A stretch of DNA of 32,000 bases from an uncultured Clostridia bacterium (GCA_934500865.1 CAKSUD010000004.1:191-32190); one strand, 5' to 3'; shown: positions 16,569 through 31,478, numbered from the stretch's first letter. Notes: generated from the letters alone by a model not told the origin. Made by a program: numbers and translations.

Positions 16569-16722
16569 AGACCTGTCCCAAATGGTCAATGCGGTTAACC
16601 AAATGAATAGAGATGAAAAATTAATTTTAAATCTTGCTACAAATTAATATTTTTGTGTATACATCACATAAAATAATGTGATAAAATGTTTATGCAAAAA
16701 TAATTATTTGTGGAGGTGGAAG

Positions 16723-17055: not shown

Positions 17056-17099
17056 TGAGCTAGTGATCAAAGTGTAACGTATATATGAAAGGTGAGAAT

Positions 17100-18266: not shown

Positions 18267-18279
18267 AGGAGGCAAAAAT

Positions 18280-18687: not shown

Positions 18688-18702
18688 GGGGGAAGAAATT
18701 AA

Positions 18703-20253
18703 ATGAAGAAATGGATGTGTGCGGTAGTTTTTTTAGCAATTGTGACAGGAAACGCCTTTGCAAATAGCTTTGACGTAGAATACATAAGCATAAAGGACGA
18801 AATCGAAGCTGAGAATTCTATTAAAAGAGAAGATTTTTTTGCTATGATAGGCTCTATAAGTGGCAAAAATGCAGGTGATGAATTAAACTATATTTTTGAG
18901 GATGACGATGAAATTGAACCTAGATATAAAAAGTATGTTTATTCATTGGCTAATGACAATATTATAAGCGGAGAGAATACTAACGATAAATTTTACTTAC
19001 AGCCCAAAAGAAAAATTACAAGACTAGAAGTTGCTGTAATAATAACAAAAGCTTTAGGAATATATTCTACATCGCCTTGCGAATTTGCCGATACTGATAT
19101 ACCGGCATGGGCAAACGATTATATTTATACTGCTATTAATTTTGGAATAATGAATTTAGATTCAAACGGATATTTTAATGCAAAAGCAACTGTAACATTA
19201 GAAGAAGCATCCGAAATGTTAGAAAATGTAGTAGGTAAAGGATATTTTGAAGAAAACAAGGCTACTATATATGCCGGAAATGGTATATCTTCTTTAAACG
19301 ATGGAGAATTAGGTGATTCAAGCTTTTTTGCTCCGATGGGCATTATAAAGTATAAAGATGCCATTTATGTGGCTGATACTAAAAATAATTCAATAAGAGA
19401 AATTAAGGAAAATATAGTTTCTACAGTAGCTGGAAATTTTGATGCAAGAGATGAATTTGAAGTTGCTATTGGGAGTTTTGCTGATGGAAATAAAGCTAAA
19501 TTCGATGCCCCTTCATTTTTAGCAACTCCAAAAACCGGATTACTAATTTCAGATACAAATAATAACTTGATAAGATACTTTATAAGAGGTAAGGTTTCTA
19601 CATATGCCGGAAATGTAAACGGGGGATATAAGGACGGAAAAAGAACTAAGGCTTTATTTAATAATCCTACCGGAATTGTGGCTACAAATAAAGGAATAGT
19701 TTATATTGCCGACACAGGCAATAACGTTATAAGAAAGATAGATAGAAATGATAATGTTACTACATATGCAGGAGTAGTATCGAGTGAGGGCGGATACAAA
19801 GACGGAAACGCGAGAGAAGCAATGTTTAACAGACCTATGGGACTTGTGCTAAAAGGTGATGTTTTATATGTCGCAGATTGTGGTAACCAAAGAATAAGAA
19901 AAATCGAAAACGGAAAGGTTTCTACTATTGCAGGTGTTGGAGATGAAAAATACGATGATTCAAATGAAATTATAGGAGATTACATTGACGGAACAACAGA
20001 GGATGCCAGATTTAATTTCCCACAGAACATTGCAATAGATGAGGAAGGAAACATATATGTTGCAGACACAGGAAATTCTGTAATAAGAAAAATAGATAAA
20101 GATGGGAATGTTTATACAATTGCCGGATTGTCTAAAAATGATGAGGTTGAAATTGTAAGCCCTGTTGGGTTAATGATTGACGAAAACAAGTTATATGTTA
20201 CTGATACAGTGAAAAATAATATTATTGTAATTGACATAGAGGAGGCGAAGTAG
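18703..20253 (+). CDS. Secreted cell-wall-associated protein: signal peptide, SLH-like domains, NHL-repeat beta-propeller
   Basis: Signal peptide MKKWMCAVVFLAIVTGNAFA. SLH-like units (ITRLEVAVIITKALG; FADTDIPAWANDYIYTAINFGIM...VTLEEASEML). At least six NHL-type repeats (YVADTKNNSIREI, LISDTNNNLIRYF, YIADTGNNVIRKI, YVADCGNQRIRKI, YVADTGNSVIRKI, YVTDTVKNNIIVI). Confidence 0.8.
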   Translation: MKKWMCAVVFLAIVTGNAFANSFDVEYISIKDEIEAENSIKREDFFAMIGSISGKNAGDELNYIFEDDDEIEPRYKKYVYSLANDNIISGENTNDKFYLQPKRKITRLEVAVIITKALGIYSTSPCEFADTDIPAWANDYIYTAINFGIMNLDSNGYFNAKATVTLEEASEMLENVVGKGYFEENKATIYAGNGISSLNDGELGDSSFFAPMGIIKYKDAIYVADTKNNSIREIKENIVSTVAGNFDARDEFEVAIGSFADGNKAKFDAPSFLATPKTGLLISDTNNNLIRYFIRGKVSTYAGNVNGGYKDGKRTKALFNNPTGIVATNKGIVYIADTGNNVIRKIDRNDNVTTYAGVVSSEGGYKDGNAREAMFNRPMGLVLKGDVLYVADCGNQRIRKIENGKVSTIAGVGDEKYDDSNEIIGDYIDGTTEDARFNFPQNIAIDEEGNIYVADTGNSVIRKIDKDGNVYTIAGLSKNDEVEIVSPVGLMIDENKLYVTDTVKNNIIVIDIEEAK

Positions 20254-20255
20254 AA

Positions 20256-21434
20256 ATGATATTAAAGAAGATTGCTTTATTTACTGCTTTTATAATGATA
20301 ATTACGAGTTTCTCTTTTGCAGCAGAAGTGGCAAATGGAAAAACAATAAGGCTTGAAATGTATACCGGTAGCGTAGAAGTAAAAAGTGGAAGTGGAAAAG
20401 AAATAAGTGCAACTGAAAAAATGAGGGTTTTTGACGGATATACTGTAAAAACACTAAGTGATTCAGAAGCGTATTTTTCTCTTGACGATACAAAGGCCGT
20501 AAAGCTTGGCGCGAATACGGAAATAAAGATTAAGAAAAGTTGGTTTTCTAATAAAATAGCAGTTATTTCCGGAGAATTATTTTTTAATGTTACTAAGCCT
20601 TTAGGCAGTAATGAAAGTTTAGAAATTTCTACTCCGACAATGTCAATGGGAATTAGGGGTACAAGCGGTTGTGTTATTGTAAATGATAAGGGAGCAAAGG
20701 CACAAATATATACGGGTAAGGTAGAAGGCTCTAGAGGCAATGCAAAAGTTCATATTAATGCCGGAGAACAGGCAATAGCAACTACCGGTTTGCAACTATC
20801 TAAATTGAAACAAGATGGTAGTGAAATTCCATCTATGGCACTTAGAGAGATAGTTAAAGATAGCAAGTTGGCTAATGAGATAAAGGAAAAAACAGAATTA
20901 AATGTAGATAATTTTACTGAGCAAGAAAAAGAGAATTCGGCTCGTGAACAGGAAATAAGTGAGAAAAAGGTGGAGGAGCTAGAGGAGGCTCGTGAAATAG
21001 CTAATAAAGAAAAAACAGAAAACAAGAAAAGTAGTACGGTTAACAGGTCTGTCACCGGAAAGAGTTCAGGCGGTTCAAAATCTTCACTTCCTCAATTGAC
21101 ATGGGAGATAGTAATGAATTGGATAGAAGTAAATTCTGACGTAGGGCTTGACGATTTTGTCAAATTTGCAAGTGGATATAGTTCCGGATTAAATATTAGC
21201 GGATACAATAAGTTAGATGAATACGGAAAAATGGGTGTAGAAAATGATATGATCGTGGATAGCACAGATGTTGGTACGATTAGGCACATTAATAATTTGA
21301 GATACTATGATACTGTTGAGAACTTGGCATCAGCGTTTAATGAATCAGTGGCTAACAATACAATAGCGCCAACAGAATCACCAGCGCCAACGGATTCACC
21401 GGCACCAACAGAGTCACCTGCAACTGATGTATAA
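20256..21434 (+). CDS. Secreted FecR-domain protein with coiled-coil linker and Pro/Thr/Ser-rich tail
   Basis: Signal peptide ending FAAEV. FecR-like block YTGSVEVKSGSGKEISATEKMRVFDGYTVKTLSDSEAYFSLDDTKAVKLGANTEIKI. E/K-rich segment. C-terminal (APTxSP)x3. Starts 2 nt after the upstream stop. Confidence 0.7.
   Translation: MILKKIALFTAFIMIITSFSFAAEVANGKTIRLEMYTGSVEVKSGSGKEISATEKMRVFDGYTVKTLSDSEAYFSLDDTKAVKLGANTEIKIKKSWFSNKIAVISGELFFNVTKPLGSNESLEISTPTMSMGIRGTSGCVIVNDKGAKAQIYTGKVEGSRGNAKVHINAGEQAIATTGLQLSKLKQDGSEIPSMALREIVKDSKLANEIKEKTELNVDNFTEQEKENSAREQEISEKKVEELEEAREIANKEKTENKKSSTVNRSVTGKSSGGSKSSLPQLTWEIVMNWIEVNSDVGLDDFVKFASGYSSGLNISGYNKLDEYGKMGVENDMIVDSTDVGTIRHINNLRYYDTVENLASAFNESVANNTIAPTESPAPTDSPAPTESPATDV
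21366..21419 (+). repeat. Three imperfect tandem 18-bp repeats encoding APTESP-APTDSP-APTESP
   Basis: gcgccaacagaatcacca / gcgccaacggattcaccg / gcaccaacagagtcacct, read directly from the sequence. Confidence 0.8.
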
Positions 21435-21446
21435 TTAAATTAGGAG

Positions 21447-23249
21447 ATGATACATATAAAGAAGTATATTGTTTGCACTTTATGTGCGGTTATGTCTATA
21501 ATTATTTTCTTAAGTGGTGTGCTAAGTAGAATAGAAGTCAACTTATCAGATATGTTTTTTCAGTCGGAGAGTGTCTTAGACGGAAATATTGCGCTTATTG
21601 AGATAGATTCAAAAAGCCTTTCCGAGCTCGGCCCTTTTCAGTCTTGGCCGAGAACATATATGGCGGATGTTATAAATATATTAAATTCAGATGAGAATGT
21701 AAAACCTGCTGTAATCGGCATCGACGTTATGTATTTTGGAAATACAACTAAAGAAGCAGATGATGCATTAGTAGAGGCTTGTAAAATTGGAAAGAATGTT
21801 GTTACAGGCAGTTTGGTTAACTTTGATTCTAAGTTAGTAAGCGATGAAAATGGTACTTTTTATATGGATAATAACTACGTAAAGCAAGTAGAAGAACCAT
21901 ATGACGAGCTTAGAAATGTTATTAAATATGGGCATCTTAACACAAAAGTAGATAGTGATGGTGTAGTAAGACGAAGTATAAATTCCATAAAGTTACCTAG
22001 TGGCGAAGAAATGAGAAGTTTTGCATTTGAAGTTTATAGGATGTTCTCTGAGAAAACAGGAGAAAGTGTGAATTATGATATTCCAACCGATACAAATGGC
22101 GAGTTTTATATCCCGTATTCAGCTAAGGTTGGCGGATTTTCTGATGGAATTTCATTTGTAGACGTTCTTAATGGGGAAATTAATCCGGATATTTTTGAAA
22201 ATAAGATAGTTTTAATAGGACCATATGCGGCAGGTCTTATGGATAACTATATAGCGGCAATCGATCATAACGAGCAAATGTATGGAATGGAAATACAGGC
22301 CAATATAATAAATACATTAATAAGTGGCAATTTCAAAACTTATGTTCCAAAGTGGGTTCAATGTATTTTGATTGGTGTTATTGTTTTTATTATGACAATT
22401 ATCTTTGAGAAGAGCAGTCTAAAGAAATCTTTTATAGCACTGATGATTGGAATAGTAGGATATTCAGGATACATATGTGCGCTTTATCATTTGGGTGGAA
22501 AGATATCTGATGTATTATGTGTACCATTATTCATAACACTTATTTATATTGCCTTTATTGTAAAAAAATATGTTAAAGTCATTTTAGAGAAAAGGAAGGT
22601 TGAGGGGACATTTAAGAGATATGTTGCACCTCAAGTTGTAGATAAGATTATAAAGGACGGAATTGATAATATAGAACTTGGCGGAAAGAAAACTGATATT
22701 GCGTGCCTGTTTGTAGACATTAGAGGGTTTACCCCTATGTCAGAGGCACTAGCTCCTGAAGAAGTTGTGGGGATATTGAACGAATATTTAAGTCTTACAA
22801 GTTCTAGTATATTTAATAATGAGGGAACTCTAGATAAGTTTATCGGAGATGCAACAATGGCTATATTTAATGCACCTTTACCACTAGATGATTATATATT
22901 TAAAGCGGTAAAAACTGCATGGGATATTGCAAAAGGTTCTGAAGAACTTTCAAAGAAATTACAGACTAAATTCGGTAAAACAATAAGCTTCGGAATTGGT
23001 GTTAATTGTGGACCAGCGGTTGTTGGCAATATTGGTACAGAAAAACGAATGGACTATACAGCAATCGGTGATACAGTAAATACTGCAGCACGTTTAGAAT
23101 CGAATGCGAAACCTGGGCAAATACTTATAAGTAAAGCTGTATATGATGCGCTAAGTGACAGAATAACAGCGACATCTATCGGCGAAATACCTCTAAAGGG
23201 AAAGAGCAAGGGCGTGGAAGTTTTTGTTGTTGAAAATATTGTTTGCTAA
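21447..23249 (+). CDS. CHASE2 sensor domain / transmembrane / class III nucleotide (probably adenylate) cyclase
   Basis: N-terminal TM, then the CHASE2-like block IALIEIDSKSLSELGPFQSWPRTYMADVINIL...VIGIDVMYF. Three hydrophobic helices. Cyclase motifs CLFVDIRGFTPMSE, LDKFIGDATMAIFNAP and AIGDTVNTAARLES. The SD (AGGAG) abuts the ATG, so the exact start is uncertain. Confidence 0.85.
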   Translation: MIHIKKYIVCTLCAVMSIIIFLSGVLSRIEVNLSDMFFQSESVLDGNIALIEIDSKSLSELGPFQSWPRTYMADVINILNSDENVKPAVIGIDVMYFGNTTKEADDALVEACKIGKNVVTGSLVNFDSKLVSDENGTFYMDNNYVKQVEEPYDELRNVIKYGHLNTKVDSDGVVRRSINSIKLPSGEEMRSFAFEVYRMFSEKTGESVNYDIPTDTNGEFYIPYSAKVGGFSDGISFVDVLNGEINPDIFENKIVLIGPYAAGLMDNYIAAIDHNEQMYGMEIQANIINTLISGNFKTYVPKWVQCILIGVIVFIMTIIFEKSSLKKSFIALMIGIVGYSGYICALYHLGGKISDVLCVPLFITLIYIAFIVKKYVKVILEKRKVEGTFKRYVAPQVVDKIIKDGIDNIELGGKKTDIACLFVDIRGFTPMSEALAPEEVVGILNEYLSLTSSSIFNNEGTLDKFIGDATMAIFNAPLPLDDYIFKAVKTAWDIAKGSEELSKKLQTKFGKTISFGIGVNCGPAVVGNIGTEKRMDYTAIGDTVNTAARLESNAKPGQILISKAVYDALSDRITATSIGEIPLKGKSKGVEVFVVENIVC

Positions 23250-23339
23250 AAATATGAGCTATGTTTTAGTAATTAACGTATATATTGATGTAGGCAATGG
23301 AATATATTTTTGAAGAAAAAATATAAGGGGGAAATTATA

Positions 23340-25226
23340 ATGGGAAGAATTTTGAAACTATTTAACAACATAAAGTCAAGCAAAAGATGGAGAAGAAACA
23401 GTGACTTATATCAAGATGTGGTAAATACTATGCAGTCTTATACAGAGCAAATGGATAAACCGGTTACGGAGGAAAGTGCAAAGAAATTATACAATATATC
23501 TAAGGCATTAAAAAATAAAGCAGACTTATATTTAGCTTCTAGGAAAAATCCTAGAACTTCAAAAGGGAAAGCTAGATTTAGCATGATACAAGAAATTGCT
23601 AATTTAAATTCTATGCCGGATGAATTAAGAGACCCTATAAAGGTAGAAGCTTTAAGAAAAGATGGCAAAAAACTAAGTGACATTGTTGATGAGGTTAGAA
23701 ACAATAATGCTGTGGATATAACGAACCAAGCTAATAAAAAAGTTTACGGTGCAGGTGCTAGTAAAAGAGTTAGATTCGACTATATGGGAAGAAACGGATT
23801 TTTTACAGGAAAGCAAAAAGTAGAGGATATAACAGTAGTTGTGGCTAGAGAACGTGAAAGGCTTGAGAAAGAAAAGAAAGCAATATTTGAAAGAATGAAA
23901 GCAAGTGGAATGTTACGGGCAGCAGAAACACCGAGCATTGTAGAAAATAAAAGTACTCAACAGATTATATCCTCTTTGGCTACTACAGCTGGTAAAGAAA
24001 TTAGTGATTTTAACGAAGAAGAAATTCGAGCCATTGTTGATTATCATAAAGAAATAAGCAAAGCAAATAATATGCAGGAAACCGCAATGGAAACAGCCGG
24101 TATAGTAGCTGATTCTGAGGTGAGCAAACGAAATGTTGCTACTTCAAGAATGGCACATATGCTTCAAATGGGGCAAAACGTAGCCTTTTCTGAAAATGTT
24201 ACCGTTATAGACAATGGAGTTAAGATGGAAGGTTCTTTTATGGCAGCGGCAGTAGGATATGATAGTAGAAGTGAAGCCGGAATGGAATTTATGGCTGATA
24301 AAGAGTTCGATTTTACAGCTCCAAGTTTACAAAGAGATATTAACAGAATGCAAGTGTTTGATATGCTTTGTGGTCAAATAGATAGACATGGTGGAAATTT
24401 CTTTTATCAAGTTGCACCTAACCCGGTAAATGGGAAGTATGTAATTACGGGCTTACAAGGAATTGATAATGATATGTCATTTGGTAATACTAACTTAAAC
24501 AGATGGAGAGGTCAAATGACACCGATTAGGGAACTTAATGCTATTGATGAGGATGTATTACAATCTTTAAGAGAACTTACACCTGAACAAATAGAGTATA
24601 CTATGGGCGATCTACTTAGTAAACAAGAAGTTGATGCCGTTATTGAGAGAAGAAATCAAATTTTAGAACATGTGGATGCCGGAAAGGCTAAAATTGTAAA
24701 GTCTGATGAATGGGGCGAAAAAACTATTCCATTAATGGAAGAAAGTTCATACTATAAAGAAATTAAAAAAGAAGTTTCTTTATCAAAAGTTTCGCTAGAA
24801 CAGAAGCATGATGCAATTGTAGACGACTATGATGATGCTGTTAAGAGGATAGAGGAATATAATGAGAAACATCCTGAAGATGAACAAGAACTTCCAATAA
24901 AGCCGGAACATTATGATGAATATAGGTTAGACAGAGGAAGACGCCAAATGGAAGCGCTAAAAGAAAAATATGAAAAGACTATGACAGATTTTGAAGCGGA
25001 GGCAAGACAGGCGGCTAAAGAAGGTAAACCTATGCCAAAAGTACCGGAAGGATATGAATATTATAGAAAAGATAGAGAAAATAAGGAAATGATGGAGATG
25101 GCAAAGGAAACAACTGAGCGCAAAGAAATATCATTAGATGAGCTTTCAGGAAGCCCGACACAAGTAACACGTATGACCCCAGCAACACCATCTAAAGTTA
25201 AAGAAATGGAAGGATTAAATAAATAA
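23340..25226 (+). CDS. 628-aa soluble protein with a PI3/PI4-kinase-like (type II PI4K-like) catalytic core and a charged repeat-containing C-terminus
   Basis: Catalytic-loop-like FDMLCGQIDRHGGNFFYQ (DRHGGN encoded at 24381-24398). DFG-equivalent GIDNDMSFG (24459-24485). Upstream block SKRNVATSRMAHMLQMGQNVAFSENVTV...MEGSFMAAAVG resembles the RE-AA...LG...VP-T ... GSFQ-F block of type II PI4 kinases. The ATG at 23340 lies 7 nt after AAGGGGGA. No signal peptide or TM. Confidence 0.5.
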   Translation: MGRILKLFNNIKSSKRWRRNSDLYQDVVNTMQSYTEQMDKPVTEESAKKLYNISKALKNKADLYLASRKNPRTSKGKARFSMIQEIANLNSMPDELRDPIKVEALRKDGKKLSDIVDEVRNNNAVDITNQANKKVYGAGASKRVRFDYMGRNGFFTGKQKVEDITVVVARERERLEKEKKAIFERMKASGMLRAAETPSIVENKSTQQIISSLATTAGKEISDFNEEEIRAIVDYHKEISKANNMQETAMETAGIVADSEVSKRNVATSRMAHMLQMGQNVAFSENVTVIDNGVKMEGSFMAAAVGYDSRSEAGMEFMADKEFDFTAPSLQRDINRMQVFDMLCGQIDRHGGNFFYQVAPNPVNGKYVITGLQGIDNDMSFGNTNLNRWRGQMTPIRELNAIDEDVLQSLRELTPEQIEYTMGDLLSKQEVDAVIERRNQILEHVDAGKAKIVKSDEWGEKTIPLMEESSYYKEIKKEVSLSKVSLEQKHDAIVDDYDDAVKRIEEYNEKHPEDEQELPIKPEHYDEYRLDRGRRQMEALKEKYEKTMTDFEAEARQAAKEGKPMPKVPEGYEYYRKDRENKEMMEMAKETTERKEISLDELSGSPTQVTRMTPATPSKVKEMEGLNK

Positions 25227-25233
25227 TATTAGT

Positions 25234-25269
25234 AAAAAAGTGGCGATTAATTTTAATCGCTACTTTTTA
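25234..25269 (+). terminator. Rho-independent terminator after the kinase-like gene
   Basis: AGTGGCGATTA (25239-25249) / TAATCGCTACT (25254-25264), 11 bp with one G-U, loop ATTT, followed by TTTTT. Confidence 0.75.
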
Positions 25270-25333
25270 GTTTAAATGTTGCATAACATATTAGAATGGA
25301 ATATTTAAGGCAATTTTTTAAATATTTCATATA

Positions 25334-25362
25334 TTGACAAGAAGTTTCAATTTCGGTATCAT
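25334..25362 (+). promoter_or_regulatory. Consensus-like sigma-A promoter of the element-borne sigma factor gene
   Basis: TTGACA (25334-25339), 17-nt spacer, TATCAT (25357-25362). The TTG taken as start codon in the ORF track is the -35 hexamer. Confidence 0.55.
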
Positions 25363-25372
25363 TATGTGTGGG

Positions 25373-25876
25373 ATGGTGACGATTTTGGTCGATTTTGAAA
25401 AAGTATACGAAGAGTATTTTTCGAAAATATATAACTTTATGTTTTATAAAGTGCTAAATAAGGAAATAGCAGAAGACCTTACAAGTGAGTTCTTTATAAA
25501 ACTTTTAACTAAACTTAATACCTTTGATGAATCGAAAGCCAATTTAAACACTTGGCTTTATACTGTTGCCCGAAATAGTGTTATAGACTATTTTAGATGG
25601 CACAAAATAGAAATGTCGGTAGATGACCAAGATAATCCGATTGAACTTCCTGTTGATTATGAATTAGAGAAAAACATTATAGAGAGTGAAGATAGAAAAG
25701 CTTTGTATGAAGCTTTAACTAAAGTTGAGGATAGAACAAGAAAATTATTGTCACTTAAATATTTTTTGGATATGTCAAATAAGGAAATATCTAGTGTTAC
25801 AGGTATAAATGAAAGTACTGTTTCTACTATATGTTTACGTGGAATAGAAAAAATTAAAAAACATTTACATATTTGA
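25373..25876 (+). CDS. Sigma-70 family (ECF-like, two-domain) RNA polymerase sigma factor
   Basis: Region 2 (AEDLTSEFFIKLL..., NTWLYTVARNSVIDYFR). Region 4 HTH (LSLKYFLDMSNKEISSVTGINESTVSTICLRGIEKIKKHL). The start is uncertain: ATG 25373 would be nearly leaderless from the promoter above, and TTG 25385 lies 5 nt after GGTGA. Confidence 0.8.
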   Translation: MVTILVDFEKVYEEYFSKIYNFMFYKVLNKEIAEDLTSEFFIKLLTKLNTFDESKANLNTWLYTVARNSVIDYFRWHKIEMSVDDQDNPIELPVDYELEKNIIESEDRKALYEALTKVEDRTRKLLSLKYFLDMSNKEISSVTGINESTVSTICLRGIEKIKKHLHI

Positions 25877-25925
25877 GCTTATTTATAAAATTTATCGTAT
25901 ATATCTATGAAAGGTGGTGTGCTGG

Positions 25926-26135
25926 ATGCTGAATGACAAAAAGTATGATTTTTCTGAGGAAACAAATATAAAGAAAAAATTATATGAAGAATGTATGAAT
26001 AAGAAAAAAGAACTGGAAAATCAGCAATCGGCACGCAGACCGGTTAGCTTAGATGAACTTGAGAATATAACTATTACAAGAATAGATAAGAATAAAGGTA
26101 ATGATAAAGAAATAAAAATAGATAAAGAGAAATAA
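25926..26135 (+). CDS. Small (69 aa) highly charged Lys/Glu-rich protein, function unknown
   Basis: The ATG at 25926 lies 8 nt after AAGGTGG. No TM and no recognisable motif. Position immediately after the sigma factor. Confidence 0.45.
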   Translation: MLNDKKYDFSEETNIKKKLYEECMNKKKELENQQSARRPVSLDELENITITRIDKNKGNDKEIKIDKEK

Positions 26136-26164
26136 TCTGACATATAAAGTGAGGTAAAAGAAAT

Positions 26165-28204
26165 ATGGGCGATATTTTTAAGAAAATAAGAAATTGGGGA
26201 ATAACAGTTATATTGGTATCTACAGTTTTAGGATATTCAATAAGAATGTTGCTTGAAAATTATGAGCTTACCATAAATGCTTTTAAAACTAAAGAATATG
26301 CCACACTTTTTAAGCCGGAATTATTTTTAGAATTAAATACATATGGATATGGATTGCTTTTAATTGCTTTGATGGTGGTACTATATTTTGTATTTTCAAA
26401 TGATGCGACAAGGAAATCTAAGAGAATGTTAAAAACTAAAGCGAAGGGCGTAGAGGGAGCTTTAGAAAATTCGAGATTCTTAACAGATAAAGAACGCGAT
26501 GACTTATTTAAGCCATATAAATACAGTAAACTAAACACAGTGAAGAAAGACGGCGTTCCGGTTAGAGCTGTTGTGAGCGGAAAGGATATGGAAGTTAATT
26601 TATCTGCTCCAATGCATGGGCTTATAATTGGTGCTACCGGAAGTGGTAAAACAACTACATTTATAAATCCGATGATACAGATTTTAGGTGAATCATCTGC
26701 CGGTTCTTCAATGATTATGACAGACCCTAAGGGCGAACTTTTCCAAATGCATAGTCAAAAGCTTAAGGAAAAAGGCTATAAAGTTATGGTATTGGATTTA
26801 AGAGATCCATATTCTTCATATAGATGGAATCCGCTTGAAGACATTTACGACAGGTATCAAGAATATGTTTCTTACGGTAAAGGAATTTTTAGCCGTGGAG
26901 ACAGTCCTGTTGACTCTGGATTAGAACTTACAGCTCCTGCTGATAGTTTTGAAGCCTTTTGGTTTGAGTATGAAGGGAAGGCATATCCTAATAAAAAATC
27001 AGTTTTAGCAGTTGTAAAAAGTAAAAGACAAAAGATATATGATGAGATATATGAGGATTTAAATGATTTGGTAAGTGTACTTTGCCCGATTGAGTCAAAG
27101 GATGACCCTGTTTGGGAGAAGGGTGCTAAATCCATAATAATGTCTACATTACTTGCGATGCTAGAGGATTCAGAAGACCCTGAACTTGGTATGACAAAAG
27201 AGAAGTTTAATTTCTTTAATGTCAATAAGGCAATTTCTAATTCAGAAGATAATTTTGCTGCTTTAAAAAGATATTTCCAAGGCAGAAATAAGTTATCAAA
27301 GGCAGTAACTTTAAGCCGTCAGGTTCTAAGTGCTGCAGATAATACATTATCAAGTTATATGTCAATTGCATTTGACAAAATGTCTATGTTTAATGACGAA
27401 GGAATTTGTGCACTAACTTCCGCAACAGATATTAATCCGGATGATTTTGCTGATCAACCGACAGCATTATTTATGAAAATACCTGATGAAAAGGATACAA
27501 GACACGGTCTCGCAGCGGTATTTATATTATGCATATATAAGGCACTAATTAAAAAGGCATCTGCTCGTGAAGATTTATCACTACCTAGAAATGTTTATTT
27601 CATACTAGATGAATTCGGAAATATGCCTAAAATTGAAAAGTTCGATAAGATGATTACAGTAGGACGTAGCAGAAAAATTTGGTTTAATATGGTAGTTCAG
27701 TCTTATGCACAACTTAATAATGTTTATGGTGATACTGTTGCAGATATTGTAAAGAGTAACTGTGGTATAAAGATGTTTATTGGTTCTAATGATATAGGAA
27801 CTTGTAAAGAGTTCTCTGAACTTTGCGGAAATATGACAGTTACAACTAACAGTATTTCAGGCTCAACAGGAGATAAGAGTGGGCAGGTAAATTATTCTAC
27901 TCAAGTTCAGACAAGACCACTTATTTATCCTTCTGACTTGCAAAAGCTTAATAATTCTAAAGAAATGGGAAATGCAATTATTGTAACTTTTGGTAATTAT
28001 CCGTTAAAAACAAAATTTACACCTAGCTTTAAATGTCCTATGTATAAAATGGGATGCATGGACTTAGCTGAAGCAAGAAGTAATGTTTTCTTCTCTGATG
28101 AAGTGTTTTATGATTTAGAAGCAAGAAACCAGATTATCTTAAAAAGGCAAGAAGAAGCCGAAAAGCAAAGTGAGGAAGTAGAAGAAAGTTTAGACGAGGA
28201 ATAA
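26165..28204 (+). CDS. Type IV secretion coupling protein (VirD4/TraG family ATPase)
   Basis: Two N-terminal TM helices. Walker A GATGSGKT. Walker B and family block FILDEFGNMPKIEKFDKMITVGRSRKIWFNMVVQSYAQLNNVYG. Acidic C-terminal tail. Confidence 0.85.
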   Translation: MGDIFKKIRNWGITVILVSTVLGYSIRMLLENYELTINAFKTKEYATLFKPELFLELNTYGYGLLLIALMVVLYFVFSNDATRKSKRMLKTKAKGVEGALENSRFLTDKERDDLFKPYKYSKLNTVKKDGVPVRAVVSGKDMEVNLSAPMHGLIIGATGSGKTTTFINPMIQILGESSAGSSMIMTDPKGELFQMHSQKLKEKGYKVMVLDLRDPYSSYRWNPLEDIYDRYQEYVSYGKGIFSRGDSPVDSGLELTAPADSFEAFWFEYEGKAYPNKKSVLAVVKSKRQKIYDEIYEDLNDLVSVLCPIESKDDPVWEKGAKSIIMSTLLAMLEDSEDPELGMTKEKFNFFNVNKAISNSEDNFAALKRYFQGRNKLSKAVTLSRQVLSAADNTLSSYMSIAFDKMSMFNDEGICALTSATDINPDDFADQPTALFMKIPDEKDTRHGLAAVFILCIYKALIKKASAREDLSLPRNVYFILDEFGNMPKIEKFDKMITVGRSRKIWFNMVVQSYAQLNNVYGDTVADIVKSNCGIKMFIGSNDIGTCKEFSELCGNMTVTTNSISGSTGDKSGQVNYSTQVQTRPLIYPSDLQKLNNSKEMGNAIIVTFGNYPLKTKFTPSFKCPMYKMGCMDLAEARSNVFFSDEVFYDLEARNQIILKRQEEAEKQSEEVEESLDEE

Positions 28205-28271
28205 ATAAAATTCGATAATATAATAAATTTATATTATATACTTTTAATACAAATGAAAGGAGGAATAATAG

Positions 28272-28589
28272 ATGAATAACTTTTTAACAATGTTATTACC
28301 TTTAACTAAAGTAAATCCTTTTGAAGGAGTTTCTAAACCAATAATAGATTTACTTAACATGGTTATGGGACCATTAATCGCAGTAGTTGGTGCTGTAGGT
28401 GCTATTTATTGCGTTATTTTAGGAGTTAAACTTGCTAAGGCAGAAGAACAGCAAGATAGAGAAAAGGCTAAGACAGCATTAAAAAATGCAATAATTGGAT
28501 TTGTTCTAATTTTCGTTTTAGTAGTGGCATTAAAAGTAAGCTTACCATTATTTGAACAATGGATGGCTTCAGCTGCATCTGGTAATTAA
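28272..28589 (+). CDS. Small two-TM membrane protein, pilin-like (VirB2/TrbC-like architecture) conjugation component candidate
   Basis: 105 aa. Hydrophobic helix, charged loop (KLAKAEEQQDREKAKTALK), second hydrophobic helix. Strongest SD in the cluster (AAAGGAGG). Immediately followed by a strong terminator. Confidence 0.45.
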   Translation: MNNFLTMLLPLTKVNPFEGVSKPIIDLLNMVMGPLIAVVGAVGAIYCVILGVKLAKAEEQQDREKAKTALKNAIIGFVLIFVLVVALKVSLPLFEQWMASAASGN

Positions 28590-28620
28590 TTTGTTGTGGA
28601 TATATGAAAAAACGACAATG

Positions 28621-28667
28621 CTGCAAAAGATAATTTAATCAACTTTTAAAATCTTTTGCAGTTTTTG
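28621..28667 (+). terminator. Strong hairpin plus T5 after the pilin-like gene (terminator/attenuator inside the cluster)
   Basis: 11-bp perfect stem CTGCAAAAGAT (28621-28631) / ATCTTTTGCAG (28651-28661), extendable by TTTAA/TTAAA, followed by TTTTT. Confidence 0.75.
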
Positions 28668-28693
28668 TTGTAAAACAGAAAGTAGATGAGTAA

Positions 28694-29782
28694 ATGAAAA
28701 AATACTATTGGGTTAATAAATTTATTGTTATACTTTTAATTTATGGAATTTTTATGGGATACAGCATTTCGTATGCTGAAAATGAAACTGAAAATGTCAT
28801 GGTGGAGGAAGAAGTAAGTACGCCACCTGTTACAGATAAATCTATTGAGCGTACATATGACGCTCAAAAAGGAATGTATAGGTATGCACTTTCGAAAAAT
28901 ACCGTTTTTTCATCTAGTGTGCCAAATGGAATAATAACTAATGGTGAAGTATATATTGATATTTCCGACAAAGTTGCATACAGCTTTACAAGAAACGGAG
29001 AGAAGTACAATTATTCACGTGGTGAAGCTATTGATGAAGATGGTGTATATAGACTTACGGTTACTGTAAATAATACTTCTGACCTTAAATTTGATTTTTC
29101 AAATTTAAATTTTTCTCTTGATTCACTAGATGGTATGCAAGGCGGAGAAAATGAGACAGAGCAAATAACAGAAACTAAAAATTCAGAGGTTACTGTTACG
29201 GACGAAGCTTGGGGCTTGGCCAATGGTACAGTGTTTGAATTTAAGTTTAGAATTATAAATAAAGCTTGTAACAATATAAATATATTCAACTTACCTCAAG
29301 ATTATGCATTTGAATCAATAATTTTTGATGAAAATAATATTGAAAACGTAAAAAAACTAAATAGTTTTTCATTAAATGATGATGGTAAGTATGTTTTTTC
29401 TATATATGATACAAAAAATCCAAAGAAAAAATTTACTACTGAAATAATTCTAAAAACTAACCTTCCAATATTAAAAATTCAGGGAGTGGTAAATGGGCTT
29501 ACAACGTATGACTCGGTGGTAATAGATACATATGAAAGTGATGTTACTTATACAGCCACTTGTAATGGCGAAACAATAAGACCGTATGGCGGTGCTTTTT
29601 CAGAGGCAGGACTTTATTCGGTTAAGGCTAAAGACGAAGCGGGGAATACGAATGAATACACTTTTAGAATACTTTACACAATGAATTTGTCTAGCGGAAC
29701 AGTTATTGCTATTGTTGTGATTATTATAATTTCATTGGTTGGATATGTAGTATATCTAAAGAAACATATGAGAGTATATTAA
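28694..29782 (+). CDS. Exported protein with N-terminal signal peptide and C-terminal TM anchor, unknown family
   Basis: Signal-like MKKYYWVNKFIVILLIYGIFMGYSISYA. C-terminal hydrophobic VIAIVVIIIISLVGYVVYL followed by KKHMRVY. Beta-rich, Asn/Thr-rich middle. No LPXTG motif. Confidence 0.55.
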   Translation: MKKYYWVNKFIVILLIYGIFMGYSISYAENETENVMVEEEVSTPPVTDKSIERTYDAQKGMYRYALSKNTVFSSSVPNGIITNGEVYIDISDKVAYSFTRNGEKYNYSRGEAIDEDGVYRLTVTVNNTSDLKFDFSNLNFSLDSLDGMQGGENETEQITETKNSEVTVTDEAWGLANGTVFEFKFRIINKACNNINIFNLPQDYAFESIIFDENNIENVKKLNSFSLNDDGKYVFSIYDTKNPKKKFTTEIILKTNLPILKIQGVVNGLTTYDSVVIDTYESDVTYTATCNGETIRPYGGAFSEAGLYSVKAKDEAGNTNEYTFRILYTMNLSSGTVIAIVVIIIISLVGYVVYLKKHMRVY

Positions 29783-29794
29783 ATCTGTTAAAGG

Positions 29795-31456
29795 ATGGGG
29801 GATACATTGACTAAATTCCTTATTTATCTTTGCTTTTTCTGCAAAATAGGTAACTGGATAAAAAATGCGTGGAATAAAATCGTAGATGCATTAAAAGAAG
29901 TTGCTAACTTTGTTACAGACCTAGCGGAGAAAGTAATAACATTTATATTTGATAAAGTGTTAGGACCGGTTATTGAGGCGGTTATCGAGCCTGTAATAGA
30001 GGCTGTACTGACAAAATTTAGTGAGTTGCTAAAAACTGCTGTAAGTACGATTATACCCCTTATAGAAAAGTTCCTTATAGACATAGCAGAACCGATATTT
30101 AACTTAGCCATATCTGTGCTTAATGCTATATGGACCCCCATAAATTTTGCAATTTTTACTGGAGCATTGAAGTTTATGGATTTGCTTGAAAATGTTTTTG
30201 ACATTTTCGCCGGAATTTCTGATGTTACATATAACGGAAGTAAAGATTTTTTACTTAATGTATTCTTTAAAAATAATGTAATAAATAGAGTGTTTTGGTC
30301 GGTAACATTAATTGCATTAGCTATTCTAGTTATTTTTACAATCATTGCAATAATTAAAAATATGAGCAATTTAGATGCAAAGCAAACAACCGGTCAAATA
30401 CTTGGTATGTCATGTAAAGCAATGATTATTTTATTCCTAATACCGTTTATGTCTTTAATTTTGCTTAATCTTTCATCTACGGTACTACGGAAAACAAGTG
30501 AAATTATTACACTTACACAAAGTGGTGAAAACAGTGCTAGTTTAGGTACATTGACATTTTTAACATTTACTATGGATGCGGCTCGAGATGATGAGTATAA
30601 CGGAAATGCTCCTCTTACTGATGAACTTAGAGCACCATATATGTCTGGCAAAAAAGATTATGCTATAAATGGTATGAACGATTTTGCAATTGAAAAAATA
30701 AATTACCTGTTAGCGTTTACAGTTTGCATTGTTATGATATTCATTATTGTTTTATGTGCAATTGTGTTCGTCGTTAAAATATTTGAAGTTTTGATTTTGT
30801 ATATAACTTCACCATTTTTTGTTGCGACCACCGTATTAGACGGTGGAGCTAAGTTCAAAGAATGGGCTAAGATGTTTATTGCAAAATTACTTGGTGGATT
30901 TGGAATGGTTATTGTTATGAAACTATTCTTTATAATTTCACCAATTGTTATGTCAGATAAGGTTGTATTTTCGCAAAATCCGCTTGCAAATTTACTGACA
31001 AAAACTTTGTTTATGATTGGTGGCTTATGGGCTGCTTATAAGTCCGGAAACCTTATTATACAAATTGTAAATATAAATGCAGCTTATCAAGAAGCTGGAC
31101 TTTCTAGCGAAATAGCCACAAGGGCAGTAAGAGCCGGAATAAAGTATGGCACAATTGCAGTAAAAGCAGTTGCTTCCGGTGGTGCTACGTTGGCAATGGA
31201 TGCAAAAAATATCGCCATAGATGTAGCAAAATCAGCTGGAAGCATGGTAATGAATGGCGAAGATAGTGGTGCTGAGAAAAAAGAAAAAAAGGAAAGTAAT
31301 GCGTTTAGAGGCGGAGGGGAAAATAAAGCTTCTAACCAACTGCAAAATCGTATTCAGCTAGGTGCACACAGAGACGGTGGAATGGCAGGAAAATTAGGAA
31401 ATAAAGATGGAATGACCGGTAAAGCTTCCGGTGCTAGCAAACTTTTGAAGAAATAA
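29795..31456 (+). CDS. Large polytopic membrane protein (VirB6/TrbL-like role candidate) with a Gly/Lys-rich tail
   Basis: An amphipathic N-terminal region with the short repeat PVIEAVIEPVIEAV. At least 6 hydrophobic helices. C-terminal low-complexity GGGENK...GKLGNKDGMTGKASGASK. An alternative TTG start at 29807 has better SD spacing (GGGGGA plus 4 nt). Confidence 0.55.
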   Translation: MGDTLTKFLIYLCFFCKIGNWIKNAWNKIVDALKEVANFVTDLAEKVITFIFDKVLGPVIEAVIEPVIEAVLTKFSELLKTAVSTIIPLIEKFLIDIAEPIFNLAISVLNAIWTPINFAIFTGALKFMDLLENVFDIFAGISDVTYNGSKDFLLNVFFKNNVINRVFWSVTLIALAILVIFTIIAIIKNMSNLDAKQTTGQILGMSCKAMIILFLIPFMSLILLNLSSTVLRKTSEIITLTQSGENSASLGTLTFLTFTMDAARDDEYNGNAPLTDELRAPYMSGKKDYAINGMNDFAIEKINYLLAFTVCIVMIFIIVLCAIVFVVKIFEVLILYITSPFFVATTVLDGGAKFKEWAKMFIAKLLGGFGMVIVMKLFFIISPIVMSDKVVFSQNPLANLLTKTLFMIGGLWAAYKSGNLIIQIVNINAAYQEAGLSSEIATRAVRAGIKYGTIAVKAVASGGATLAMDAKNIAIDVAKSAGSMVMNGEDSGAEKKEKKESNAFRGGGENKASNQLQNRIQLGAHRDGGMAGKLGNKDGMTGKASGASKLLKK

Positions 31457-31478
31457 ATTTTGTAAAGAGGTGAGATAG

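Follow-up and report, generated by a model that had tools for sequence, protein, structure and literature searches.

The closest described folds to the protein studied here are the type II PI4 kinases (PI4KII; PDB 4pla, 4hne, 4wtv). We analyzed a 32,000-nt stretch of an uncultured Clostridia bacterium (GCA_934500865.1 CAKSUD010000004.1:191-32190; the window) that encodes a kinase-like protein, here called KIN. In PI4KII and KIN the motifs follow one order: Gly/Ser-rich loop (GAGAS in KIN), FFK/FFT strand, R-x-x-A helix, GSF(M/Q) hinge, D-R-x-x-x-N catalytic loop, I-D-N metal loop. For PI4KII these strings come from an earlier reading of the DNA alone (the sequence-only reading) and from general background rather than from a residue-level alignment. 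Unlike PI4KII, KIN is bacterial, carries Thr156, and lacks the Cys-rich palmitoylation insert and a PF00454 match. It also has parts that PI4KII does not: ~120 aa of N-terminal helices, a helical insertion of ~90 aa and a charged tail with repeats. The best sequence-profile match is to Fam20 kinases (FAM20C and the pseudokinase FAM20A), with which the DRH(H) and DN(x)xFG motifs and an L..E..AL..RL helix align. Fam20 kinases act outside the cytoplasm that produces them, as we propose for KIN, although KIN has neither a signal peptide nor their disulfide-rich architecture. The next fold matches are bacterial atypical Ser/Thr kinases, namely HipA/HipT, which act as toxins, and Helicobacter pylori CtkA, a secreted pro-inflammatory factor; KIN is much larger, has other flanking domains and lacks an antitoxin partner. 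In the WNK kinases, an unrelated branch of the superfamily, β3 lacks the catalytic Lys and a basic residue on β2 by the Gly-rich loop takes its place. The counterpart in KIN would be R143, an Arg rather than a Lys, with a spatial match derived from predicted strand register.

Kinases are also known as secreted effectors. Legionella LepB, MavQ and LegA5 are lipid-kinase effectors translocated by Dot/Icm. They are PI3/PI4-kinase-like and rely on a T4SS whose coupling protein is of the VirD4 type, a functional analogy to the role proposed for KIN, although a close sequence relationship is absent and the Legionella system is Gram-negative, of type IVB and directed at eukaryotic hosts, whereas that beside KIN is of the monoderm conjugation type and belongs to gut or rumen Clostridia. 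To our knowledge, Gram-positive T4SSs have so far been described almost only as conjugation machines, and protein effectors of such systems are essentially undocumented. Bordetella BtrU/V/W controls a T3SS, and PpkA/PppA threonine phosphorylation gates the H1-T6SS of Pseudomonas. Both are precedents for control of a secretion machine by partner switching or by a kinase/phosphatase pair. The island around KIN likewise encodes, together with a secretion apparatus, a PP2C phosphatase, a STAS protein and an RsbW-like kinase/anti-sigma factor; it differs in its input (a CHASE2 cyclase and a cNMP-binding PP2C), its output (a dedicated sigma factor) and its T4SS-like machine, which in some relatives is a contractile injection system. 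Patescibacteria carry a conjugation-derived, chromosomal T4SS of the monoderm type that comprises VirB4, VirB6 and a pilin-like protein (PF18895), has no nearby relaxase and has been proposed to act in a non-conjugative role (bioRxiv 10.1101/2025.01.22.634366). It belongs to another phylum than the KIN island, and that study describes no kinase-like cargo, cNMP module or partner-switching module. Our literature search returned nothing specific on a described clostridial T4SS, kinase or partner-switch system, and a 2026 preprint on new kinase-like families of the oral microbiome covers families other than that of KIN.

KIN is a soluble protein of 628 aa when read from the ATG at 23340 (Table 1). 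A TTG at 23310 gives a longer form of the ORF; the ATG is preferred because a strong ribosome-binding site, AAGGGGG, stands 8–14 nt upstream of it. In line with the sequence-only reading, the terminator scan found no terminator-like site on the + strand of the 90-nt gap between the cyclase gene and KIN (23250–23339), and KIN may be co-transcribed here with the cyclase operon. Where a strong terminator had been proposed (25234–25269), a hairpin (25240–25263) and T-run are present just after the stop codon, the T-run beginning 3 nt past the stem on the + strand; the scan scored the − strand, and the element looks bidirectional. Further downstream, the public gene call starts the sigma-factor gene at about window position 25364.

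Table 1. Features of the KIN gene and its surroundings, in window coordinates.
Feature	Position	Strand	Basis and remarks
Upstream signalling operon	16678..23249	+	Pfam; order conserved in relatives whose KIN is 43% identical
Shine-Dalgarno-like AAGGGGG	23325..23331	+	8-14 nt 5' of ATG 23340; read from sequence
KIN gene	23340..25226	+	ORF, homologs, AF2 model; product 628-aa kinase-like protein
N-terminal helical region, aa 1-120	23340..23699	+	Modelled helices 2-121; conserved columns
Kinase-like core, aa 121-470	23700..24749	+	AF2 model of crop, Foldseek
Gly-rich loop GAGASKR, aa 137-143, including Arg143	23748..23768	+	Conserved columns, covariation
Thr156, canonical beta3 ATP-binding Lys position	23805..23807	+	FFT here; FFK in about 40% of family
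Catalytic loop DMLCGQIDRHGGN, aa 341-353, with D348, R349, H350, N353	24360..24398	+	Conservation; aligns with DRHH loop of FAM20A/C
Metal-binding (DFG-equivalent) loop IDNDMSFG, aa 375-382	24462..24485	+	Conservation
Charged helical C-terminal region, aa 471-593, 48% charged	24750..25118	+	Composition, model
First P-x-x-Y-x-x-Y-(K/R) repeat, PEHYDEYR, aa 522-529	24903..24926	+	Regex survey
Second P-x-x-Y-x-x-Y-(K/R) repeat, PEGYEYYR, aa 569-576	25044..25067	+	Regex survey
Disordered C-terminal tail (predicted), aa 594-628	25119..25223	+	pLDDT <50 at 594-597, 599-628
Terminator-like hairpin GTGGCGATTAA...TAATCGCTAC with T-run	25240..25269	.	Stem 25240-25263, after KIN stop codon
Best sigma-70-like promoter match of region	25334..25362	+	TTGACA-17-TATCAT, 11/12; precedes sigma-factor gene
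Downstream T4SS-like module	25334..31456	+	Pfam; runs on past window end

AlphaFold modelled full-length KIN with pLDDT 86.1 and pTM 0.78, and AF2 modelled a crop of the core (aa 112–470, window 23673–24749) with pLDDT 91.1 and pTM 0.88. The prediction is confidently that of a bilobal kinase-like core, with an N-lobe β-sheet and helix and a helical C-lobe holding both the catalytic and the metal-binding loop. A likeness to type II PI4 kinases had been noticed by eye, and the best 12 Foldseek matches in the PDB are indeed all PI4KII alpha/beta (E 2.4e-6 to 3.1e-5, probability 1.0, TM 0.39–0.47, identity 11–16%). CtkA (E 9e-4), Ron13, HipA (E 8e-3), MavQ and CotH follow, and HipT is also present. 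Among the 50 matches listed, 13 had E <= 0.001, and all were kinases, pseudokinases or HipA-type toxin kinases except the PRPK-TPRKB complex (E 0.28). As modelled, KIN has a protein-kinase-like fold of the eukaryote-style kind seen in PI4KII and Fam20.

Sequence profiles drew the borders of the family less sharply. The expected membership in a PI3/PI4-kinase family held for some longer relatives, which exceed the PF00454 threshold, but not for KIN itself, which stays below the threshold of every Pfam family. PI3_PI4_kinase (PF00454; threshold 27.1 bits) gave KIN no match even at E <= 10, whereas Fam20C (PF06702) reached 23.1 bits (E 6.7e-5, aa 331–437) against a gathering cut-off of 26.8; TIGR03843 (SCO1664 family) matched at E 3.9e-4. 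Among 38 homologs, Fam20C matched 22 and PI3_PI4_kinase nine. Because relatives P0039, P0050, P0055, P0058, P0062 and P0093 score 40–60 bits with PF00454, the family borders on it, and P0062 (37.4) and P0058 (35.0) also pass the Fam20C threshold. The HipA_C and HipA_N Pfam profiles did not match KIN; one KIN relative had a weak HipA_C match. Searched against the PDB, a 98-sequence family profile found FAM20A (E 0.007) and FAM20C (E 0.047) in an alignment that covers the C-lobe only, from the catalytic loop through the DN(G/D) loop to the helices after it. A 38-sequence profile gave spurious best matches such as CntL, with FAM20 at E ~2, and phmmer gave noise only for KIN and no match for P0039. 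Within the PKL superfamily, the KIN family most likely lies between the type II PI4 kinases and the Fam20 kinases.

The motifs on which the sequence-only reading rested are all in place: FDMLCGQIDRHGGNFFYQ (aa 340–357), GIDNDMSFG (aa 374–382), RNVATSRMAHMLQMGQNVAFSENVTV (from aa 264) and EGSFMAAAVG (aa 297–306). We counted their conservation in 333 aligned family domains, of which 327 have a residue at the motif columns and 310 at columns 137, 141 and 156. The residues picked out as catalytic or metal-binding recur in nearly all homologs (D348 in 318, R349 in 323, N353 in 318, D376 in 318 and D378 in 320 of 327), as do N377 (303) and F381 (319) of the metal-binding loop and R264 (317), N265 (319), G298 (305) and M301 (316). 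Judged from these alignments, motif conservation is far above chance, and D348, N353 and D376 are kept in 116/122 locus-encoded domains. Of the outcomes that would have refuted the sequence-only reading (no significant profile or fold match, no bilobal core, motif residues that vary among homologs), none was seen. The Gly-rich loop retains G137 in 280/310 domains and S141 in 287/310.

At the β3 Lys position, residue 156 is Thr in 147, Lys in 128, Arg in 15 and Ser in 13 of the 310 domains; KIN belongs to the R-T subtype (Arg143/Thr156). Setting R143 with T/S156 against a hydrophobic residue 143 with K/R156 gave a 2x2 table of 151/0/9/143, with counts that are not phylogenetically independent. 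In the AF2 model, strands 143–148 and 151–157 form a hairpin with a two-residue turn; since this turn pairs 143 with 156, Arg143 is predicted to stand opposite Thr156 across β2 and β3. Catalytic activity of KIN is not guaranteed, as the β3 Lys is missing. Yet every loss of Lys156 comes with a gain of Arg143, which suggests selection for a charge that binds phosphate, and Arg143 probably compensates for the missing Lys by a WNK-like relocation.

The core is organized as N-lobe strands, the helical insertion (aa 164–252), an alpha-C-like helix starting at R264-N265, and the C-lobe. It is preceded by a helical region with conserved positions Y64, R79 and R120 (90% or more in A5) and an NP.T..GKAR block; a second copy of this region (aa 1–120) occurs in some relatives. 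The N-terminus (MGRILKLFNNIKSSKRWRRNSD...) has no hydrophobic signal segment on inspection, and KIN lacks a sensor, a membrane domain and a membrane anchor. The N-lobe insertion is Cys-free, and since C344 is the only Cys of KIN, a CCPCC-type palmitoylation motif is excluded. The C-terminus is as strongly charged as first described, with 25 K+R and 34 D+E among the 123 residues of aa 471–593; it is modelled with long helices at 482–510, 525–561 and 572–592, and its length differs greatly between close homologs. A regex survey found one to six copies of P-x-x-Y-x-x-Y-(K/R) in 18 of the 19 closest homologs (P0001–P0019) and none in P0020–P0038; across all 174 proteins surveyed, 46/48 occurrences lie C-terminal to the kinase core.

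KIN sits between the cyclase operon and the T4SS module of the sequence-only reading, which the comparison of loci showed to be not independent neighbours but two parts of one conserved island. The upstream operon encodes, in order, a DUF3307 protein, a cNMP-binding PP2C (SpoIIE) phosphatase, an RsbW-like HATPase_c_2 protein, an SLH/NHL protein, a FecR-domain protein and a CHASE2 adenylate/guanylate cyclase. Downstream lie genes for a sigma-70-family factor, a 69–73-aa ORF, a VirD4/TraG coupling ATPase (940 nt downstream of KIN), a T4SS pilin-like protein, a 362-aa protein with a signal peptide and a C-terminal anchor, and a 553-aa TrbL/VirB6-like protein. Beyond the window end, the corresponding locus L089 (same strain, 99.9% identity) continues with two more VirB6-like paralogs, a VirB4-like ATPase, an SBP, a CPBP/Rce1-like protein and a STAS protein. 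KIN is thus encoded in a conserved island with a T4SS that includes its coupling protein (VirD4/TraG, pilin-like, VirB6-like and VirB4-like components). Many island proteins are envelope-associated (SLH/NHL, CBM6), with choline-binding repeats in relatives.

KIN always lies where the T4SS-like module meets the cNMP module, in both of the gene orders seen. The R-T subtype accounts for all 35 KINs from loci with the pilin gene and for all seven from CHASE2-cyclase loci without it. VirD4 homologs were found only in window-type islands and not within 10 kb in Hungatella/Enterocloster-type islands. An integrative conjugative element (ICE) inserted beside an unrelated signalling operon was considered and ruled out, as the three parts co-occur in two gene orders across genera. 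Uniform GC across the genes (0.28–0.37) speaks further against it, as does the lack of any relaxase or integrase family among the precomputed Pfam matches of the genes called between GlgA and STAS; several island proteins have no Pfam match at all, and a divergent relaxase may be among them. The island is bordered by RecG/GlgA in two or more relatives at the species level, and this flank is the same in L002.

Of all the island's genes, KIN has diverged most. Compared with locus L004, it retains 43% identity, vs 61–89% for the 14 other island genes. It also occurs in tandem arrays of up to five paralogs, four with catalytic residues and the fifth a degenerate fragment. By searching metagenomes with the pilin-like protein (the alignment of the 362-aa surface protein had no conserved stretches), we found pilin-anchored islands that hold the same partner-switching genes without any KIN. 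In L093 and four near-identical contigs with the same gene coordinates, the KIN slot is filled by a soluble protein of 1022 aa that is unrelated to KIN and has a charged tail of low complexity. Neither this gene nor a 793–826-aa gene upstream of KIN in Hungatella-type islands proved to be a divergent kinase, since both lacked a profile match with filters off and had no catalytic motifs. Relatives of KIN also accompany other machines: in L037, one follows the contractile-injection baseplate genes Phage_base_V, gp25, Baseplate_J and Tail_P2_I and a double AAA ATPase, the place where cargo genes classically sit, and in L007 Tail_P2_I and an AAA ATPase lie nearby. This genomic behaviour suggests exported cargo rather than a housekeeping enzyme. 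Of the two contexts first offered for the gene, synteny, divergence, arrays and replacement favour cargo or effector of the transfer system over a sixth member of the signalling operon.

KIN is most likely an active atypical kinase, and we hypothesize that it is translocated cargo of the adjacent T4SS-like apparatus; as a whole, we hold this reading at roughly even odds. The ATP site would lie between GAGAS of the Gly-rich loop (aa 137–141) and the GSFM hinge (aa 298–301). Chemistry and metal binding would fall to Asp348 and Asn353 in the DRHxxN loop and to Asp376 in the IDND loop, and Arg143, in place of the β3 Lys, would supply the phosphate-contacting positive charge. With the moderate confidence we hold in the cargo role, KIN would be made in the cytoplasm without a signal peptide and passed to the T4SS-like apparatus (VirD4, VirB4-like, VirB6-like and pilin-like proteins; no relaxase seen). 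Candidates for recognition by the coupling protein are the charged C-terminal region, the P-x-x-Y-x-x-Y-K/R repeats and the disordered tail. Once delivered, KIN may phosphorylate a target in the recipient cell. The regulatory half of the island would set the timing of machine building and firing: the CHASE2 cyclase may produce a cNMP that activates the PP2C phosphatase, which would act on the STAS protein, and STAS may then titrate the RsbW-like anti-sigma factor and free the sigma factor. The analysis shows the fold, the conserved motifs, the 143/156 covariation, the synteny of the island, the fast divergence, amplification and replacement of KIN, and the presence of relatives beside other injection systems; that KIN is an enzyme and is exported, whether it acts on a lipid, a protein or a small molecule, and which type of cell it targets are matters of inference.

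A different role for the same fold, which we hold to be rather unlikely, is that of a cytoplasmic regulatory kinase that opposes the cNMP-controlled PP2C and phosphorylates some part of the partner switch or the T4SS-like machine, thereby gating assembly or firing. The operon-like succession of the cyclase gene and KIN without a terminator is consistent with it, as is the presence of PP2C (SpoIIE-family) genes within 10 kb of KIN in 42/88 loci, some of them without T4SS genes (L007, L010, L037, L056, L084 and L088). KIN relatives and the same regulatory genes also stand beside two different injection machines, like a portable cassette. However, the loci already hold a complete trio of kinase, phosphatase and substrate (HATPase_c_2, SpoIIE and STAS), KIN has no sensor or membrane domain, and islands with the same machine and partner-switching genes do without it. 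Arrays of two to five paralogs and about twice the divergence of every neighbouring gene would be unexpected for a dedicated regulator with a conserved substrate. KIN could also be a dead pseudokinase serving as scaffold, adaptor or decoy, exported or not, as Thr156 replaces the β3 Lys throughout the subfamily, N265 stands where the PI4KII RE-AA block has Glu (in the motif alignment of the sequence-only reading), and the best PDB sequence-profile match is the pseudokinase FAM20A. Yet the catalytic Asp and Asn and the metal-binding Asp, seldom kept by pseudokinases, are near-invariant in both subfamilies, and loss of Lys156 is always paired with Arg143 on the partner strand; we judge this improbable.

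The HipA, HipT and CtkA fold matches, the weak HipA_C match in one relative and the phosphatases that often neighbour KIN would fit a HipA-like growth-arresting toxin kinase in a toxin-antitoxin or anti-phage module, with a neighbour such as the PP2C phosphatase as antidote. This seems very improbable: in the neighbour cluster analysis, no HipB-like or other small antitoxin partner is conserved beside KIN, and the genes constantly found near it serve secretion machinery and signalling rather than defence. The family matched none of 50,697 phage records, on which ground we also rejected a phage origin of KIN, and only one plasmid match was found. Least credible in our view is a housekeeping role, in which KIN would phosphorylate lipids or small molecules among the membrane or envelope precursors of the producer, as the bacterial equivalent of PI4KII. 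Lipid kinases do have the nearest folds (PI4KII first, MavQ at a greater distance) and many island proteins are envelope-associated, but KIN has no membrane anchor or CCPCC-type motif and is the fastest-evolving, tandemly amplified and dispensable gene of its locus. Phosphatidylinositol is, moreover, not known to be a typical clostridial lipid.

The cargo reading can be extended to a broader one that we hold only tentatively and consider doubtful as a whole: a chromosomal, conjugation-derived T4SS-like machine of gut and rumen Clostridia, in which no relaxase was seen and which is under a CHASE2-to-sigma switch, would inject proteins into other cells rather than transfer DNA, with KINs as its main effectors, which would be rapidly diversifying, carry the WNK-style residue and be common to contractile injection systems and a Proteobacterial T3SS. 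If the cargo reading is true, common members of the gut and rumen flora (Hungatella, Enterocloster, Butyrivibrio and unnamed Eubacteriales) have a regulated system for protein injection, whose kinase effectors resemble those delivered to host cells by Legionella. If the broader reading is true, no T4SS with protein effectors would have been described before in Gram-positive commensals, and this one would wield an arsenal of eukaryote-like kinases. Such an outcome would give a function to several thousand 'hypothetical proteins', provide an independent example of a catalytic basic residue relocated in the kinase fold, and tie cyclic-nucleotide sensing and partner switching to secretion control. 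Read conservatively, the KIN family still forms a new, cleanly set apart and testable branch that lies between PI4KII and the Fam20 kinases.

Such domains had been thought unusual in Firmicutes, a claim refuted by their abundance in Clostridia: an exhaustive profile search gave 4,127 cluster representatives at 50% identity, nearly all of them clostridial. A word-indexed search had returned a tiny family of 38 proteins, which was a sensitivity artefact. We found no Pfam or NCBIfam model of the family's own. In species-representative genomes, tblastn confirmed 293 relatives, and the 78 loci kept are all from Clostridia except one from Parolsenella. The single plasmid match is a Comamonas homolog annotated as a PI4-kinase; its N-terminus is disordered and rich in Ser, and a gene for a T3SS chaperone is found two genes downstream of it.

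The motifs quoted in the sequence-only reading are all present in KIN, the 628-aa kinase-like protein, at the places it named. The case for a kinase-like domain from the sequence of KIN itself is weak; the kinase-like identity is clear at the level of its family. KIN matched Pfam Fam20C over residues 331–437 (E 6.7e-5, 23.1 bits, below the cut-off of 26.8) and the NCBIfam model TIGR03843 (SCO1664 family, E 3.9e-4), and a PDB sequence search with KIN alone gave no match. Among 38 homologs from a word-indexed search, 22 matched Fam20C and nine matched PI3_PI4_kinase, and longer relatives exceeded the PF00454 gathering score of 27.1 (P0039, 60.5 bits; P0050, 55.4; P0055, 51.2; P0058, 48.2). A 98-sequence family profile run against the PDB retrieved FAM20A (E 0.007) and FAM20C (E 0.047), with alignments covering the DRH loop, the DN.xFG loop, and the helices after them, and PI4KII beta at E 0.9. 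AlphaFold2 modelled full-length KIN with pLDDT 86.1 and pTM 0.78, and its core (residues 112–470) with pLDDT 91.1 and pTM 0.88. The 12 best Foldseek matches in the PDB were all PI4KII alpha or beta (E 2.4e-6 to 3.1e-5, probability 1.0, TM 0.39–0.47), which upholds the earlier placement by eye in the type II PI4K branch; Helicobacter pylori CtkA, Toxoplasma Ron13, HipA, Legionella MavQ, and CotH followed. The relation to PI4KII is a remote resemblance rather than membership (11–16% identity, TM below 0.5), and KIN formally falls outside both Pfam families, PI3_PI4_kinase and Fam20C. KIN comes closest to PI4KII in fold and to Fam20 in sequence, but PI4KII has a palmitoylation motif and the β3 lysine, both of which KIN lacks. 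We read the profile and model evidence as suggesting that KIN works like a kinase of the PKL superfamily.

The catalytic and metal-binding loops were near-invariant in 333 aligned domains, taken from fetched loci as well as database proteins, and 327 of these domains had a residue at the C-lobe columns (D348 in 318/327, R349 in 323/327, N353 in 318/327, D376 in 318/327, and D378 in 320/327). R264/N265 and G298/M301 were likewise almost invariant. Position 156, that of the canonical ATP-binding β3 lysine, divides the family (Lys, 128 domains; Arg, 15; Thr, 147; Ser, 13). Arg143 accompanied Thr or Ser at 156 in 151 domains and Lys or Arg in none, whereas other residues at 143 accompanied Thr or Ser in nine and Lys or Arg in 143 (Fisher p ~2e-76, on sequences that are not phylogenetically independent). 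In the KIN model, strands 143–148 and 151–157 are joined into a hairpin by a turn of two residues, so positions 143 and 156 would, from the register, be cross-strand partners. We interpret this, from the model and by analogy, as a probable shift of the basic residue that binds phosphate from β3 to β2, for which WNK kinases offer the parallel.

An exhaustive profile search recovered 4127 cluster representatives (50% identity) at E ≤ 1e-3 and 1417 at E ≤ 1e-30, many of them proteins of 1300–1500 aa with two kinase-like domains. Species-representative genomes contained 293 confirmed relatives, and the 78 loci kept and listed were all from Clostridia save one Parolsenella, with carriers in Lachnospiraceae (Hungatella, Enterocloster, Butyrivibrio, [Clostridium] asparagiforme), Oscillospiraceae, and Ruminococcus. 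These numbers contradict the earlier view that such domains are unusual in Firmicutes; the domain is unannotated there, not unusual. NCBIfam holds no model for the family, and the source names of the homologs read "hypothetical protein" only. Phage genomes yielded no family matches, and plasmids yielded one.

The KIN gene is intact (table), and a scan found no terminator-like site in the 90-nt gap between the CHASE2-cyclase gene and KIN. By its sequence, KIN lacks both a signal peptide and hydrophobic segments and contains a single Cys. Residues 471–593 are 48% charged, and residues 594–628 are predicted to be disordered in the AlphaFold2 model. The P-x-x-Y-x-x-Y-(K/R) repeats of the charged region occur in 1–6 copies in 18/19 of the closest homologs and are absent from more distant members; they are loosely reminiscent of the EPIYA-type tyrosine motifs of T4SS effectors.

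Features of KIN, its island, and related loci (positions refer to the window unless a locus is named; L020, [Clostridium] asparagiforme DSM 15981; L089, scaffold of the same strain as the window; other L numbers, fetched loci)
Feature	Position	Strand	Remark
KIN ORF	23340-25226	+	intact, 628 aa; ORF reading
Shine-Dalgarno AAGGGGG	8-14 nt before ATG	+	read from sequence
PEHYDEYR repeat	24903-24926	+	P-x-x-Y-x-x-Y-(K/R), charged C-terminal region of KIN
PEGYEYYR repeat	25044-25067	+	P-x-x-Y-x-x-Y-(K/R), charged C-terminal region of KIN
Hairpin and T-run	25240-25269		directly 3' of KIN stop codon; terminator scan/sequence
Sigma-70-like promoter match	25334-25362		best of region, 11/12; overlaps TTG start listed for sigma-factor ORF
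Pilin-like gene	28272-28589
VirB6-like paralog, 553 aa	29795-31456
VirB6-like paralog, 616 aa	L089:11685-13535
VirB6-like paralog, 730 aa	L089:13570-15762		weak CBM_6
Island	16678-32000 and L089:11685-20205		L089 part = window ~31479-39999
~790-830-aa protein	L020:7505-9886; L093:10371-12851
KIN orthologue	L020:9911-11662
PP2C/HATPase_c_2 fusion	L020:12464-14083; L035:5044-6744		539-566 aa
Choline-binding-repeat and CPBP/Rce1-like proteins	L020:11675-12442, 14414-15301; L093:15920-16705, 18652-19554; L089:19291-19878
1022-aa protein	L093:12812-15880		also in L094-L097, L161
Injection and partner-switching genes with KIN relatives	L037:33-12742; L007:315-15500
Comamonas homolog locus	L171:6345-9928		NZ_CP106882.1

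The neighbours of KIN in the window are not two unrelated units but one conserved island. Its genes run DUF3307, cNMP-binding PP2C (SpoIIE), RsbW-like HATPase_c_2, SLH-NHL, FecR, CHASE2-cyclase, and KIN, followed by a sigma factor, a 69-aa ORF, VirD4, a pilin-like protein, a 362-aa surface protein, and three VirB6-TrbL-like paralogs; relatives retain this order despite only 43% KIN identity. The same-strain scaffold (99.9% identity) continues past the window with a VirB4-like ATPase, SBP, CPBP/Rce1-like, and STAS proteins, the last of which completes the partner-switching set. The island is chromosomal and spans ~23 kb with the STAS gene at its end. GC content is uniform across it, and RecG/GlgA flank it in related species. 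No relaxase or integrase families were present among the precomputed Pfam matches of its called genes; a comparable monoderm-type T4SS with no nearby relaxase has been published for Patescibacteria (bioRxiv 10.1101/2025.01.22.634366). The three VirB6-like proteins are identified as channel paralogs in a row because each of them matches the one 745-aa TrbL/VirB6-like protein that C. asparagiforme encodes. The sigma factor probably starts at the ATG near 25364, which the public gene call also uses and which gives a product of 170 aa. Across clostridial genera the island parts occur in two gene orders, with KIN at the junction in both; Hungatella, Enterocloster, and C. asparagiforme have VirB6-like and VirB4-like genes, then further genes, surface protein, pilin-like protein, an unknown of ~793 aa, KIN, cNMP-PP2C, FecR, and CHASE2-cyclase. 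Carriers that can be cultured include C. asparagiforme DSM 15981 and Enterocloster citroniae DSM 19261. The Arg143/Thr156 subtype was found in 35/35 KINs from loci with a pilin gene and in 7/7 from CHASE2-cyclase loci without one. The pilin-like protein is highly conserved; it shows 56–67% identity between genera whose KINs share only 27–38%, and 47 of its columns are invariant in 16 sequences. In islands of the Hungatella/Enterocloster type, a conserved protein of ~790–830 aa without a domain match (cluster 8, 21 loci) is always encoded between the pilin-like gene and the KIN slot; window-type islands lack it. In some islands the PP2C and RsbW-like HATPase_c_2 proteins are fused.

The sequence-only reading had offered two roles for KIN, a sixth member of the signalling operon or a cargo of the transfer system. 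We give an even chance to KIN being an exported cargo, which five points favour: divergence, tandem amplification, dispensability, association with other injection machines, and a T3SS neighbourhood in Comamonas. KIN has diverged far more than any other island gene, with 43% identity between the window and L004 against 61–89% for the 14 others compared, and 28% between the window and C. asparagiforme against 58–61% for the VirB4-like and pilin-like proteins. Many loci carry two tandem copies, L010 and L023 carry three, and two Hungatella loci carry five, four with an intact catalytic triad and one that is a fragment. The island can do without KIN: a pilin-anchored search recovered islands that lack it but share the pilin, surface-protein, VirB6-like, and SpoIIE/HATPase/STAS genes. 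In L093 and four near-identical contigs with the same gene coordinates, the place of KIN is taken by an unrelated soluble protein of 1022 aa whose charged tail is of low complexity, and L140 shows another arrangement. Other loci place KIN beside contractile machinery. L037 reads Phage_base_V, gp25, Baseplate_J, Tail_P2_I, double-AAA ATPase, and KIN, and the site after baseplate and AAA ATPase genes is where extracellular contractile injection systems (eCIS) carry their cargo; L007 has Tail_P2_I and the AAA ATPase with two KIN paralogs, and eight loci show this pairing with an AAA ATPase. The sole plasmid homolog, from Comamonas endophytica (809 aa, annotated phosphatidylinositol 4-kinase), has a Ser-rich disordered N-terminus, a K-type active site (Lys at 156), and no helical N-lobe insertion; the next two genes downstream encode a hypothetical protein and a T3SS chaperone.

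That KIN is instead a regulatory kinase seems doubtful. Three observations speak for a regulator and against cargo: PP2C phosphatases are its commonest neighbour (42/88 loci), also at loci without visible T4SS genes, KIN of the window may share a transcript with the signalling operon, and VirD4 was seen in window-type islands only (not within 10 kb in Hungatella/Enterocloster-type ones). However, loci with PP2C already have a complete RsbW-like/STAS/PP2C trio. A simpler reading puts these injection loci, cargo included, under the control of partner-switching modules. L037 and L007 also combine baseplate genes, the double-AAA ATPase, and KIN relatives with a MatE-HATPase_c_2 fusion, SpoIIE, and STAS, and partner switching may therefore also control clostridial eCIS loci. 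The relocated basic residue and the intact D/N/D triad argue for an active enzyme over a pseudokinase, which we consider improbable. A HipA-like toxin or defence module is very improbable, and a housekeeping lipid kinase least probable of all; a small remainder of the probability falls to none of these readings.

As a putative secreted atypical kinase, KIN has analogues in the Fam20 kinases, CtkA of H. pylori, and LepB and MavQ of Legionella. A literature search found no description of the KIN family, the island, or a Gram-positive T4SS with a kinase cargo. Established for the mechanism are the fold of the protein, the conservation of its catalytic residues, the covariation between positions 143 and 156, and the architecture of the island. 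Beyond these, we propose that an extracellular cue would stimulate the CHASE2 cyclase, with FecR and SLH-NHL proteins as accessories, and that the resulting cNMP would activate the cNMP-binding PP2C to dephosphorylate STAS. STAS would then sequester the RsbW-like protein and release the island sigma factor for transcription of the T4SS-like operon, for which the scan also gave a strong sigma-70-like promoter match. The VirD4 coupling ATPase would recognise KIN for export, possibly through its charged, repeat-bearing C-terminal region and disordered tail. In a recipient cell, with a bacterium, protozoan, or host cell as candidates, KIN would phosphorylate a lipid, protein, or small molecule. 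Among related kinases, PI4KII and MavQ have lipid targets, and Fam20C, CtkA, and HipA have protein targets.

The 1022-aa protein lies in human-gut islands that are otherwise equivalent; it has no Pfam match, ends in a long (E/K/A/G/P/S)-repeat tail, and is a possible alternative cargo. Proteins with choline-binding repeats and CPBP/Rce1-like intramembrane proteases, the latter from a family frequently linked to bacteriocin immunity, recur in the islands and hint at a cell-envelope or antagonism context.
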